A stretch of DNA of 64,000 nt, from assembly GCF_003790525.1 (NCBI RefSeq), contig NZ_CP033636.1, one strand, 5' to 3'. Under the pieces are notes generated by a model. The model had not been told where the DNA came from. It did no database searches and saw nothing but the letters and a program-made list of their open reading frames with translations. Made by a program: the position numbers and the translations under genes. Positions 45,461 through 48,512 of this stretch are shown piece after piece (the first letter of the stretch is position 1; each line of letters starts with the position of its first letter). The stretch comes from Escherichia coli. GTDB lineage: Bacteria; Pseudomonadota; Gammaproteobacteria; Enterobacterales; Enterobacteriaceae.

Positions 45461-46333
45461 TTAAATAAATTTATTAGTTACATACATGAACGTGCAGACT
45501 ACCAAACAGGCAATTCCGGCAATATGTAACCAATTTCTTGTTGGTTTAGTTGGTGCAATCGCTAAAGAGTTCTCCAACTTCTCTGTTACAAGACGTCGAT
45601 TCTCTGCTTTAGCCGCATCATCTAAATATTGAGTTTCACGCTTAGCGAGAGTCTCAATTTTCGATTTTATTGCATGGTCCCATCCTTTAGTTTCAAAAAC
45701 GCTTAACTCACTAAAGGTGTGCGTCATGAGATCTTCTGGGAAACCCAGTTTTTTCATTAACGGACGAATGGTATCATACATTTTTTCTACATTTTCGTAG
45801 TGGGCCTTTACTGCGACATCAAAACGCTTACGTAAAGTTAATTTTTCACGTTTGCAAATGATGTCCGAAACCCAATTTATTAACTGCTCATTTTTGAGTT
45901 CACTGGCTTTTTCAAGTGAGTAATCCAGATTATCCACGTCAAGAAATGAATTTAATCCGTATTTTTCAAACTCCTCAACAAGATATTTATCCAGTTCAGT
46001 TAAGCTTTTAAAAAGTGGTACATCTGGGGAAGCTTTAAGAAGCTTATAAGCTCCTTCGAAATCAATTTTCTTGACCACGAGCTCCACAACATCCACATGA
46101 TAATAGCTTGAATAAGCAGAAAGCTTTTCGGCCAACAAAGACACAGGCTTAAGAGACTTAAGTTCAATGATATTTGGGCCGTCCTCATTCAAAATAACAA
46201 TCAGTTCATTATCACGTTCTGTATATTTCATCAGAACTTCTAAGAGCTGTTTGTTTAGCGCCTTATCCATCTCTGGAATAATTTCACTAAAGGTTTGATG
46301 AAGGGCTTTACTGCGAGCTTTATTTTTAGACAT
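45461..46333 (-). CDS. hypothetical protein with C-terminal membrane anchor (290 aa)
   Basis: C-terminal hydrophobic helix WLHIAGIACLVVCTFMYV; AGGTGA SD. Confidence 0.45.
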   Translation of the reverse strand: MSKNKARSKALHQTFSEIIPEMDKALNKQLLEVLMKYTERDNELIVILNEDGPNIIELKSLKPVSLLAEKLSAYSSYYHVDVVELVVKKIDFEGAYKLLKASPDVPLFKSLTELDKYLVEEFEKYGLNSFLDVDNLDYSLEKASELKNEQLINWVSDIICKREKLTLRKRFDVAVKAHYENVEKMYDTIRPLMKKLGFPEDLMTHTFSELSVFETKGWDHAIKSKIETLAKRETQYLDDAAKAENRRLVTEKLENSLAIAPTKPTRNWLHIAGIACLVVCTFMYVTNKFI

Positions 46334-46462
46334 TTGGGGTCACCTATATATAGTAAGAAGGAAGAAACAATTTTTTGTTTCAACACGAAGGCAAAGCCTG
46401 TCATTCATCTCCCGTAAGCTATGAACCGCCTGATTTATACTATCTGGCATTAGAAGTACGCA

Positions 46463-46487
46463 ACAAAAATAGCTCCAGGAGGAGCTA
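46463..46487 (-). terminator. Rho-independent terminator about 240 nt downstream of the helicase gene
   Basis: On the minus strand: TAGCTCC-TCCT-GGAGCTA followed by TTTTTGTTG. Confidence 0.55.
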
Positions 46488-46628
46488 AATTAGTTACGGT
46501 TTGGTAAATTCAGATTGCCTTTTTCAGGCATGGGAAGTGCACCAGCGACAAAGGTGACATTTTGCCGGTGGTGTCTTACAGCTTGTTTAAGCTGGCCGCT
46601 TTTCACGGCTAAATCAACGCTTAACGCG

Positions 46629-46639
46629 AAAGTAACTTT
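46629..46639. repeat. AAAGTWACTTT palindrome copy 8 (intergenic), paired with an inverted partial copy
   Basis: cgAAAGTAACTTTaagcAAAGTTACTcaa; the two copies can form a 9-bp stem. Confidence 0.9.
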
Positions 46640-46727
46640 AAGCAAAGTTACTCAAATTTGGGAGCTGATATTTAAGCTCATTGTTTTTATACTATAGCTT
46701 TAAGCATAAGTAAATGCCCATATCGAA

Positions 46728-48512
46728 TTATTCTGTATAAACTGGAGAAATTCGAATATTAGCTGCTTCTTTTATCTTTTCTTCACTGCATTCTCTTAAA
46801 AAGAAAGAAGGGTCACCATACCACATTACAAAAAGTTGCTTTTCTGCACGCGTAAATCCAACATAAAGCAAACGTCTTTCTTCTTCTATTGCCTCCTCCC
46901 CAACTGATCTTTTACTTGGTATCTGATCCGCATTACAACTCATTATTATTACTTTATTCCACTCAAGACCCTTTGAACCATGCAAGGTTGATAGGACTAC
47001 TTTCTCTGGGCTGTATTCCTCGTCCTTCTTCCTAGGGCCTAATGACATTGCAGCAGCACGATTGATCATATTCATCCAACCAGTCTTTTCTGCCCACTGT
47101 TTACAAGTGTCTAAAGCAATTTTTGTTAAGGTTGCTGTACCTTTATTACTCCTCATCTTGATTGACGACGATTCCATCCATTTCGTAAGGTTGGCGAAAC
47201 GTTTTGCTATCTCAACTTTATCAGTACTTTCCTGGGTAAAGCGCACGAAGTTTGAATGTAATGTTTTTGTTTCGAGAGAACTGTCCTCCGGGATGGCAAG
47301 GTCGCCAAAAGTAACTTTTCTTCCTCTCATACTCAATGCCACATCATCCAAAACTGATTCCTGTTCTCCAAACAATGCCAATACTCTCTTCATTAAGCGA
47401 GGATCATTTGATTGTCGGAAAAAGGCCATAAGGCTTAACACATCGCTTGTTTCTTTTTCATCCCAGAATGATTTACCTCCGTAACGAATTACTGGCTGTT
47501 CGATCAAACTTTCTAGCTCATCCAAGTGAGCATTATTGCGGCTTAGAATTGCCCATCCATGTGGATCCTGATTTATAAGGCTTAAAATACCCTGTATCTG
47601 TTCCTCCATATCTACATATGAACGAAAAGTGACCTTTCCTCCTCCCTTTTTTGCCGAGCGTAACTCTTTGGCATAACGGTAAACATTCTTTCCTATCAGT
47701 GCTCCGGCCACCTCTAAAATTTCAGGTTCACACCTAAAGCATGTGTTTAAGTAAAATATGTTAGGTCTGAAGTGTTTTTCAAACTGTTGAAATATTTTGA
47801 CTCCTCCTGAGGATCTGAAGGAGTAGATGGCCTGATCATCGTCTCCAACTATACTCGTATAGACTCCAGCTCTTGTATGCAATGCTATCCATGAGAATTG
47901 TATAGAGTCAGTATCCTGAACTTCGTCTACTATCAAATGTGTCAAATCTAACGTGCGCATTTTTCCCGAATGCATTTGACCGACAACAAATTTTGAAAGA
48001 GCATTGAGGTCCGCCACATGGTCTTTCTGGCATAACGCCTGATAGGTATTAAATAAATGGATCTGTTGTCTGTTATGCCGAACTGAAATCACATCCGTAT
48101 CCATTTCTCTGCCGATAGCATCAATAACGAATTCAGCTTCAGCAAACTTCATCGTTACACCGGATTCTTTCAAAGCCCGGTGAATGACAGATCTCTGTGC
48201 TGGCCCTATCAACATCTTTCCCGGCCAGCGAATCATGTCCAGTTGCTTCTTAACGAGTCCGTGAAAAGTATCCACCAGCACCCGGTCAAGATCCTTCTTG
48301 CTCAATCGCTTTTGTAACTTTGCTGCAAGTGCGTTTGTTGCAGCGCGAGTAAAGGTCACCATCCCGATTCTTGCATATGGATACTTTTTGAGAATCGATA
48401 TAACCGCTTCTATCATGGTGAATGATTTGCCTGATCCAGGCGCTGCTATCACCATATTGTTTGCGCTAGCATTCTCGATAACAGGTCTTTGCTCTTCTGT
48501 TGGCTTACCCAT
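46728..48512 (-). CDS. UvrD/Rep-type superfamily-1 DNA helicase
   Basis: 594 aa; N-terminal Walker A AAPGSGKS; UvrD-like layout; GAGG SD. Confidence 0.7.
   Translation of the reverse strand: MGKPTEEQRPVIENASANNMVIAAPGSGKSFTMIEAVISILKKYPYARIGMVTFTRAATNALAAKLQKRLSKKDLDRVLVDTFHGLVKKQLDMIRWPGKMLIGPAQRSVIHRALKESGVTMKFAEAEFVIDAIGREMDTDVISVRHNRQQIHLFNTYQALCQKDHVADLNALSKFVVGQMHSGKMRTLDLTHLIVDEVQDTDSIQFSWIALHTRAGVYTSIVGDDDQAIYSFRSSGGVKIFQQFEKHFRPNIFYLNTCFRCEPEILEVAGALIGKNVYRYAKELRSAKKGGGKVTFRSYVDMEEQIQGILSLINQDPHGWAILSRNNAHLDELESLIEQPVIRYGGKSFWDEKETSDVLSLMAFFRQSNDPRLMKRVLALFGEQESVLDDVALSMRGRKVTFGDLAIPEDSSLETKTLHSNFVRFTQESTDKVEIAKRFANLTKWMESSSIKMRSNKGTATLTKIALDTCKQWAEKTGWMNMINRAAAMSLGPRKKDEEYSPEKVVLSTLHGSKGLEWNKVIIMSCNADQIPSKRSVGEEAIEEERRLLYVGFTRAEKQLFVMWYGDPSFFLRECSEEKIKEAANIRISPVYTE
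47308..47318. repeat. AAAGTWACTTT palindrome copy 9 (inside helicase CDS, encodes K-V-T-F)
   Basis: Exact match ccAAAAGTAACTTTTct. Confidence 0.9.

Follow-up and report, generated by a model that had tools for sequence, protein, structure and literature searches.

A conserved, structured candidate RNA gene between the transfer helicase gene trhI and the next backbone operon of IncHI plasmids

What, if anything, is encoded by the non-coding DNA that follows the gene of the conjugal-transfer helicase in plasmids of the IncHI group? The question is raised by 64,000 nucleotides (nt) of an Escherichia coli assembly (GCF_003790525.1, contig NZ_CP033636.1), here called the window, which is an IncHI2 plasmid, 100% identical to IncHI2 plasmids such as pAPEC-O1-R and many mcr-1-type plasmids. 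The 240 nt in question (46488-46727), part of a locus held by 1,396 plasmid records, lie between the stop codon of the helicase gene trhI and an intrinsic terminator, and an original prediction made from the letters alone suggested that they could be either a small RNA (sRNA) derived from the 3' untranslated region (UTR) of the helicase gene or a cis-acting site. The sequence is conserved, rich in hairpins on the minus strand, non-coding, more conserved than the genes that flank it, and closed by a canonical intrinsic terminator. We read it, with rather more conviction than doubt, as the gene for an independently transcribed, highly structured non-coding RNA of ~215 nt belonging to the IncHI backbone.

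All of the local genes are carried by the minus strand, and the 240-nt interval is the first part of a 394-nt intergenic region that separates trhI from the next backbone operon. The argument starts from three features:

46728..48512, minus strand: trhI (open reading frame 48512..46728), the IncHI conjugal-transfer UvrD-type helicase gene and the "helicase" of the original prediction
46728-46730, minus strand: stop codon of trhI, TAA
46462..46679, minus strand: predicted non-coding RNA of ~215 nt, both ends predicted (fold z = -7.3; match to a covariance model of the locus at 46456-46685, 248 bits)

Homologues were collected from plasmid records and from pattern scans of genomes and metagenomes with the most conserved downstream motif, giving 25 distinct versions of the intergenic region; the scan of genomes contributed two loci, both of classes already known. 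Two classes are compared below. The IncHI1/HI2 class (HI class) consists of the window, R27-like plasmids, pNDM-CIT-like plasmids, Leclercia plasmids and the metagenomic contigs L021, L029 and L037, and the Klebsiella IncHI3/5-like class (Klebsiella class) consists of 16 variants. A search in distant mode finds the interval from 46694 onward to be ~84-85% identical in IncHI1 (R27-like) and pNDM-CIT-like plasmids, with no feature annotated there. When 5.8 kb of IncHI2 are aligned with IncHI1, the identity per 100 nt is mostly 65-80% in coding DNA, as against 86-92% for 46608-46309, which is the block of highest identity in the alignment, the small orf125 excepted. The TrhI protein is 82% identical in IncHI1, 76% in L029 and ~49% in the Klebsiella class.

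As minus-strand RNA, 46684-46457 folds with a minimum free energy of -76 kcal/mol, compared with -47.3 ± 3.9 kcal/mol for dinucleotide shuffles (z = -7.27; 0/200 shuffles as good). The fold of the plus strand is weaker (z = -3.19, dinucleotide shuffles). Homologues of both classes also beat their shuffles in the sense orientation (z = -2.9 to -7.2), and their antisense folds are usually weaker. The features named by the original prediction, its hairpins, its terminator and their position after the helicase stop, are all present where it placed them, but the "several hairpins" of which it spoke, though real, were under-counted, as the minus-strand RNA has seven in addition to the terminator:

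46662..46679, minus strand: H1, GAGCU-uaaauauc-AGCUC, the 5'-terminal hairpin; L029 has GGAAC/GUUCU instead and still pairs
46630..46653, minus strand: H2, GAGUAACUUU-gcuu-AAAGUUACUU; the loop varies among variants, and L029 has GUAGC/GCUAC
46618..46628, minus strand: H3, CGC-guuaa-GCG; GCGC/GCGC in IncHI1 and L029
46595..46609, minus strand: H4, GCCGU-gaaaa-GCGGC; stem and loop invariant across the IncHI1/HI2-class variants
46579..46594, minus strand: H5, CAGCUU-aaac-AAGCUG; the loop differs in each lineage, and L029 has CAGCCU/GGGCUG (U-A to C-G, U-A to U·G)
46540..46573, minus strand: H6, a long hairpin, CACCA-C-CGGCAAA ... UUUGUCG-C-UGGUG
46516..46530, minus strand: H7, UGCCU-gaaaa-AGGCA; UGUCU/AGGACA in IncHI1 (C-G to U-A), and an IncHI2 single-nucleotide polymorphism at 46524 in the loop
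46499..46511, minus strand: A/U-rich single strand GAAUUUACCAAAC, directly 5' of the 3' hairpin; the Klebsiella class has the similar UUUCCACAACUCGUAG
46461..46487, minus strand: intrinsic terminator UAGCUCC-uccu-GGAGCUA followed by UUUUUGUUG, -10.6 kcal/mol, common to the trhI mRNA
46459..46498, minus strand: outer stem CGUAAC (46498-46493) / GUUGCG (46464-46459), enclosing terminator and U tract; invariant, with UCGUAG/CUACGG in the Klebsiella class

H2 (46653..46630) corresponds to the pair AAAGTAACTTT / AAAGTTACT of the original prediction, found at 46629-46652, and H5 (46594..46579) to its CAGCTT-AAAC-AAGCTG, which was written in minus-strand orientation. The CGUAAC segment has two options for pairing, either with GUUGCG beyond the U tract or within a small UUAC/GUAA hairpin. 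Both CGUAAC and AUUUACCAAA, in the single strand before the 3' hairpin, are invariant throughout the HI class.

The segments of this RNA differ in how well they are kept between HI2 and HI1. Identity is 92-96% in H4-H6 and 81-85% from H7 through the terminator, and it falls to 57-62% in H1-H3, where the hairpins are nonetheless retained. Loops turn over while stems persist: the H5 loop reads AAAC, TCTA, ACTT, TGTC, ACAC or ACCA according to lineage, and the loops of H2 and of the terminator differ as well. Compensatory changes are found in L029 in H1 (GAGCU/AGCUC to GGAAC/GUUCU), H2 (GUAAC/GUUAC to GUAGC/GCUAC), H5 (U-A to C-G) and H6 (A-U to U-A), and in IncHI1 in H7 (C-G to U-A). Of the 58 pairs that RNAalifold predicts, 11 carry double changes. 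The seven HI-class sequences were realigned with a covariance model derived from this alignment, after which 96.1% of the cells pair and double changes occur in 11/58 pairs (17 cells). Column shuffles give 3.8 ± 1.4 such pairs and 4.4 such cells, with 0/500 reaching the observed values, and sliding the partners by 1-3 columns leaves only 1-4 double-change pairs and 30-42% pairing. Both of the marks of a conserved structured RNA, compensatory pairing and a fold better than chance, are found here, in seven sequences and in an alignment fitted to its model.

The strand can be read from the same alignment. G·U pairs fill 30/406 paired cells, and three G·U pairs are invariant; the opposite strand would have A·C mismatches in their place, which points to the minus strand as the RNA strand. 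The polymorphisms within IncHI2 amount to five in the RNA: two in single strands, one in the H7 loop, one a 1-base insertion in a linker, and A46474G, which converts a U-A pair of the terminator to U·G. An RNA from the plus strand was considered and set aside, because its fold is weaker, the G·U cells become mismatches, and its terminator-like H1 lacks a U-rich tail in IncHI1; a promoter-like site at 46327-46354 that might have served it is not conserved in L029 or in the Klebsiella class. H1 on the plus strand, with ATTGTTTTTA (46662-46679), does score as terminator-like in the window, probably incidentally, the T-rich tail being missing in IncHI1.

The Klebsiella class preserves the arrangement more than the sequence. 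Its RNA body (e.g., L006:4792-5030; also L006-L008, L011 and metagenomic loci) is ~185 nt long and its hairpins are mostly different. The two classes have in common the H6 base CACCA/UGGUG, a compound 3' hairpin and the single strand that leads up to it; the upper part of H6 is remodelled in the Klebsiella-class plasmids yet still pairs. Its members are too much alike to show covariation. Double changes are absent, every substitution that leaves a standard pair intact is of the wobble type (U-A to U·G, A-U to G·U), and one or two sequences have lost the pairing at five pairs.

An intrinsic terminator is recognised by a stem that is rich in G+C and no shorter than 5 bp, with a short loop and a U tract directly 3' of it. 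The one claimed by the original prediction is borne out, with its stem at 46487..46470 and then TTTTTGTTG: the 7-bp stem has 4 G-C pairs, the loop has 4 nt, and the whole, tail included, occupies 46487-46461. IncHI1, L021, L029 and L037 retain it with U·G substitutions, and A46474G in other IncHI2 plasmids is a change of the same kind. The 3' hairpin is worth -7.5 to -10.6 kcal/mol in the HI class and -0.8 to -2.5 kcal/mol in the Klebsiella class. A terminator scan calls the terminator of the window and finds none from the trhI stop to 46487, and because nothing ends transcription between those points, the trhI mRNA must carry the interval as its 3' UTR.

Does the RNA then come into being only as part of that mRNA? 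A candidate promoter, P1, suggests that it does not:

46709..46714, minus strand: P1 candidate -35, TTTACT; TTTACA in all other variants
46686..46691, minus strand: P1 candidate -10, TATAAA; TATAA invariant, the sixth base A, C or G

Every full-length variant (23/23) has TTTAC(A/T), exactly 17 nt and then TATAA, and the sequence of the spacer varies freely. The pattern occurs once in the window, where 0.01 occurrences would be expected by chance. It lies 14-42 nt past the trhI stop codon, and in the Klebsiella class, where the C-terminus of the helicase is unrelated, its -35 overlaps the final codons and the stop of the helicase gene. The sigma-70 consensus calls for a -35 like TTGACA, a spacer of 17 ± 1 nt and a TATAAT-like -10 in which positions 2 and 6 are A and T, and the -35 of P1 (TTTACT or TTTACA) matches it at 4-5 of 6 positions. 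Conserved hexamers about a spacer fixed in length and variable in sequence are the signature expected of a sigma-70 promoter. H1 begins with G46679, the seventh base downstream of the -10; with that base as +1, the RNA would open with a 5'-terminal hairpin, and its 3' end would fall in the U tract, at ~46465-46462.

These elements suggest the following sequence of events. RNA polymerase would start at a sigma-70-type P1 (TTTACT-N17-TATAAA, 46714-46686) right after the trhI stop, and the transcript would open with H1 and end at the terminator near 46462. The same terminator would end the trhI mRNA and would shield P2, a second promoter-like block described below, from upstream transcription. 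The product would be a small RNA of the 3'-UTR type with a promoter of its own, not a processed fragment. The near-invariance of H4-H6, loops included, together with the A/U-rich strand, is what one might expect of sequence-specific recognition by a protein or another RNA. More speculatively, the invariant H4-H6 module and the A/U-rich single strand may form a working surface to which a target RNA or a protein (Hfq or ProQ-like) would bind. A terminator with a U tail, preceded by an A/U-rich single strand, is present in the predicted RNA. Also speculatively, the RNA may regulate in connection with the adjacent operon, which is linked to conjugation and induced at low temperature.

The original prediction is in this way partly upheld. 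Its sRNA or cis-acting site is a non-coding, strongly structured sequence that is under selection as minus-strand RNA and shares the terminator of the helicase gene. As for derivation from a 3' UTR, the topology is right, in that the interval is the trhI 3' UTR, but a processed tail is disfavoured, since a conserved P1 just after or overlapping the stop codon argues for an independent start.

Several considerations pull the other way. P1 is not called by a consensus scan, position 6 of its -10 being A, C or G and not T. The covariation is limited to seven sequences, with much of the signal supplied by the divergent metagenomic contig L029; part of that in H2 amounts to a one-base register shift, and the alignment is fitted to the model. 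The HI-class covariance model finds the Klebsiella RNAs at the syntenic place with a marginal score (17-18 bits, E ~0.02). In that class the 3' hairpin is A/U-only and very weak, and the RNA may read through into the operon. The outer stem spans the U tract, so it can form only in read-through RNA. Finally, the reverse complement of the conserved single strand is found nowhere else in the window at up to 3 mismatches, and no target or partner was found.

Some of the same facts lend weight to another explanation, unlikely in our judgement though the one to be taken most seriously, that the interval acts in cis as a leader or attenuator. According to this explanation, P1 is the promoter, or one of two, of the orf290 operon, the hairpins are its 5' leader, and the terminator is an attenuator under regulation, which determines read-through and may contribute to induction at 25 °C. 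Here the nature of the operon matters. The next gene after the intergenic region is orf290 (46333..45461, start codon at 46333), homologous to R0002 of R27. It heads a long co-directional backbone array of unassigned functions that includes a MoxR-type AAA ATPase, a DUF3150 protein and a vWA protein. The downstream genes in R27 are R0002, R0001 and then R0210 through R0204 (numbering confirmed on the R27 record). This nine-gene R0002..R0204 cluster was found to be induced 5-23-fold at 25 °C relative to 37 °C, alongside transfer genes (PMC7366339). The microarray consisted of probes for open reading frames, so that an intergenic RNA had no probes, and trhI is absent from its list of thermoregulated genes (PMC7366339).

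It speaks for an attenuator that the operon directly downstream is induced at 25 °C in R27, that the conserved outer stem needs sequence past the U tract, that the 3' hairpin of the Klebsiella class is too weak for good termination, and that the -35 of P2, the other candidate to drive the operon, is poor in both classes. An attenuator, however, requires an alternative to its terminator, and folds of the nascent RNA give no conserved antiterminator, the 5' arm of the terminator being without a conserved upstream partner. An exchange of arms between H1 and the terminator was considered in this role and rejected, as the sequence similarity between the two is lost in L029. The terminator of the HI class, moreover, is canonical and strong. 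Beyond it, in a second conserved unit at 46334-46458, there is a near-invariant promoter-like block, with the same GTATAAA at its -10 and with a hairpin at its own predicted +1:

46426..46452, minus strand: P2 block TAATGCCAGATAGTATAAATCAGGCGG, candidate -10 TATAAA at 46439-46434; nearly invariant in IncHI1, IncHI2 and Klebsiella IncHI3/5-like plasmids, unique in the window
46334..46428, minus strand: structured 5' UTR of orf290, 90-94% identical between HI1 and HI2, with three hairpins that show covariation

The block, TAATGCCAGA(A/T)AGTATAAA-TCAGGCGGTT (46452-46423), and much of the 5' UTR that follows are almost invariant, the Klebsiella class included. The hairpins of this leader covary (UUCAU/AUGAA vs UUUGU/AUAAA; AGGC/GCCU vs GGCA/UGCC; GAAACAA/UUGUUUC vs GGGAU/AUUCC vs GGAAUA/UAUUCC), and the first of them opens the 5' UTR at the predicted P2 +1. 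A -10 identical to that of P1, a poor -35 and a conserved "spacer" would fit an activator-dependent promoter, and P2 with its 5' UTR looks like such a promoter plus the leader of the R0002-R0204-type operon. The leader starts with GGCGGT (46423-46428, minus strand), the first six bases of ops, the RfaH-responsive operon polarity suppressor element (GGCGGTAGCGTG). We do not read it as ops, since the rest of the element mismatches, agreeing at 7/12 positions in the HI class and 8/12 in the Klebsiella class.

If the interval encodes an RNA of its own, as we favour, what might the RNA do? One suggestion, which we regard as doubtful, is that it is a dedicated IncHI riboregulator, a plasmid RNA family not yet described, that would control the R0002-R0204-type operon jointly with the adjacent invariant P2/5'-UTR block. 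Its action could be in trans, on a protein partner or the operon leader, or it could be a switch for read-through that responds to temperature. Base pairing with the start of the operon was sought. The H6 loop GUCACCU complements the Shine-Dalgarno sequence of orf290, AGGUGAC, and in the Klebsiella class AUACCUUU complements the corresponding sequence there, but an anti-Shine-Dalgarno role is rejected, since the duplex energies do not improve on those of shuffled RNA (0.06-0.64 of the shuffles lie at or below the observed energy) and the H6 loop is lost in L029. Nor does complementarity between the RNA and the P2 5' UTR hold up, for the best stretches differ from lineage to lineage and the sole 11-bp match occurs in one Klebsiella subtype.

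Could the interval be nothing but a passive trhI 3' UTR, whose hairpins merely stabilise the helicase mRNA against 3' exonucleases and whose terminator insulates the next operon? The geometry would permit it: with no terminator before 46487 the trhI mRNA must traverse the interval, and the terminator stands exactly between two transcription units. We nevertheless find this improbable, because it leaves unexplained both the P1 hexamers, fixed in their spacing across lineages in which TrhI is only 49% identical, and the 92-96% identity of H4-H6, loops included, when the coding flanks are ~72% identical. A stabiliser, besides, needs one 3' hairpin, not eight.

Still less probable is a site that works as DNA, whether for initiation or primosome assembly on single-stranded DNA (ssDNA) during conjugation, as a set of inverted repeats bound by proteins, or as a Tus/Ter-like barrier. 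Hairpin-rich non-coding DNA beside a helicase gene on a conjugative plasmid does invite the idea, ssDNA tolerates G·T pairs too, and GTAACTAA at 46497-46490 resembles the Ter core on a plasmid that encodes a Tus-like protein. The resemblance is poor: the 12-nt core ATGTTGTAACTA is not matched in the interval at 2 or fewer mismatches, and the window as a whole holds 6 such matches, with 5.6 expected. The cis-acting site of the original prediction, in the sense of a double-stranded DNA target, is not supported, as the seven unrelated palindromes would require seven different binding proteins, and their variable loops, G·U-type substitutions and strand asymmetry are unlike protein-binding repeats. 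The unit is framed by a promoter motif of duplex DNA and a U-tract terminator, and an ssDNA site would have use for neither. Nor is the unit repeated, as the P1 motif, the P2 motif and the covariance model each find a single locus in the window. The IncHI origin of transfer presumably lies in Tra1, in which case the interval is not in the leading region.

A small protein encoded in the interval can for all practical purposes be dismissed, even though a 51-residue open reading frame beginning with TTG (46645..46490, minus strand) is present in the window, was annotated once by a RAST-type annotation, and persists in part of its frame (VKSGQL...RHHRQNVTFVAGA) in IncHI1 and L037, for its start is TTG or GTG depending on the variant, its frame is shifted by 1-2 nt in pNDM-CIT-like and Leclercia plasmids and lost in L029, and the substitutions track the boundaries of stems and loops, not codon positions. 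The verdict of the original prediction, "no convincing ORF" (open reading frame), accordingly holds for this frame and for a 60-residue TTG frame on the plus strand, neither of which keeps its frame and extent in homologues or is annotated by the Prokaryotic Genome Annotation Pipeline. Indels of 1-2 nt separate close relatives, and in the seven HI-class variants no frame retains its start, its phase or its length, the reading frame having disappeared from L004, L005 and L029. The single annotation, made outside that pipeline (AVE23738.1, "hypothetical protein", MF344581.1 41148-41303), is, as these comparisons indicate, a spurious gene call.

The RNA that we favour may be compared with several known systems. 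DapZ and MicL are 3'-UTR-derived sRNAs transcribed from a promoter of their own, which lies within the upstream gene or at its end. The locus resembles theirs in a promoter at or overlapping the upstream stop, an RNA co-linear with the 3' UTR, a terminator in common, and an A/U-rich stretch before the terminator hairpin. It differs in that the predicted RNA, at ~215 nt and with eight hairpins, is much longer and more structured, is plasmid-borne and is known here from sequence, in which no seed or target was identified. FinO-domain proteins recognise a terminator hairpin, and like FinP and the RNAs bound by ProQ, the predicted RNA is highly structured, sits beside the transfer genes of a conjugative plasmid and ends in a terminator hairpin. 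Unlike FinP, it is antisense to no gene, the opposite strand having no conserved open reading frame or promoter, and it has no sequence or Rfam similarity to those RNAs; no gene with a FinO or ProQ domain was found in the 49 kb of annotation examined. With attenuators and long leaders the locus has in common the order of promoter, structured RNA, intrinsic terminator and operon, and an operon regulated by condition (25 °C in R27), but no conserved antiterminator or alternative fold was found in it, and it interposes a second conserved promoter-like block between terminator and operon. Single-strand initiation (ssi) sites and ssDNA promoters of the Frpo type also consist of hairpins clustered in non-coding plasmid DNA. 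Here, however, the hairpins are short and independent, unlike one long imperfect hairpin that rebuilds a promoter, and they are bounded by a duplex-type promoter and a U-tract terminator.

A covariance-model search was proposed along with the original prediction. The model of the locus itself matches 46456-46685 on the minus strand, as listed above; the families of Rfam 15 all fall below their thresholds: the best matches in and around the interval reach 17-20 bits against thresholds of 45-75, and the homologous loci give none at gathering thresholds. One weak match lies inside trhI (46817-46911, minus strand; 20 bits against a threshold of 65.2, E = 9.3) and is to n00280, "Clostridioides difficile sRNA included into helicase gene"; we read it as a chance match and the name as a coincidence. 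Full-text searches of the literature found no description of an RNA at this locus, and a deletion study of Rts1 held nothing relevant.

The surroundings of the RNA offer some further observations. Synteny is identical in the IncHI1/HI2 and Klebsiella classes: the helicase, 330-395 nt of non-coding DNA, three hypothetical genes and the AAA ATPase. Within this order orf290 evolves fast, its product being 43% identical in L029 (at L029:3066-3965; TrhI 76%) and 26% identical in Klebsiella plasmids (at L006:5134-6153; TrhI 49%), and the non-coding region upstream of it barely changes. The Orf290 protein has no Pfam family, and its C-terminus (...IAGIACLVVCTFMYVTNKFI) looks hydrophobic by eye. In L012 (metagenome contig PPYF01612598.1), homology to the other Klebsiella-class loci ends inside the 5' UTR after GGTGATAAACGAC, ~60 nt past the P2 -10, with unrelated sequence beyond; a rearrangement has its breakpoint here, leaving the RNA and P2 in place without the operon. 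Further afield, in Aeromonas media pMC64A (L009:4744-5893), a distant helicase homologue (34% identity) also precedes an unannotated spacer, in this case of 1.15 kb, which opens with TTGACA-N17-TATGTT and contains two copies of a ~100-nt sequence, ~309 nt apart and 80-94% identical. That spacer has no Rfam match.

In typhoid Salmonella the IncHI plasmids are carriers of multidrug resistance, and in Enterobacterales they account for much of the burden of mcr-1 and carbapenemases. H-NS/Hha, TrhR/TrhY and HtdA explain only part of the temperature dependence of their transfer. Across IncHI1 and IncHI2 no neighbouring stretch is as well conserved as the non-coding unit described here, whose promoter and general arrangement are found again in IncHI3/5-like plasmids. 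The unit heads a nine-gene cluster that is among the most strongly cold-induced parts of R27, and it is invisible to arrays based on open reading frames and to genome annotation. What appears to be new is an undescribed, lineage-specific plasmid RNA, apparently real and conserved, which is of interest chiefly because it stands at the head of the thermoregulated cluster. Provided that it is expressed, the RNA would give a concrete and easily mutated handle on the control of that cluster, and perhaps of transfer itself, and it would add a new family to the short list of plasmid-backbone RNAs. Should it prove to be a riboregulator, a layer of RNA would be added to the classic thermosensitive transfer of the IncHI plasmids.

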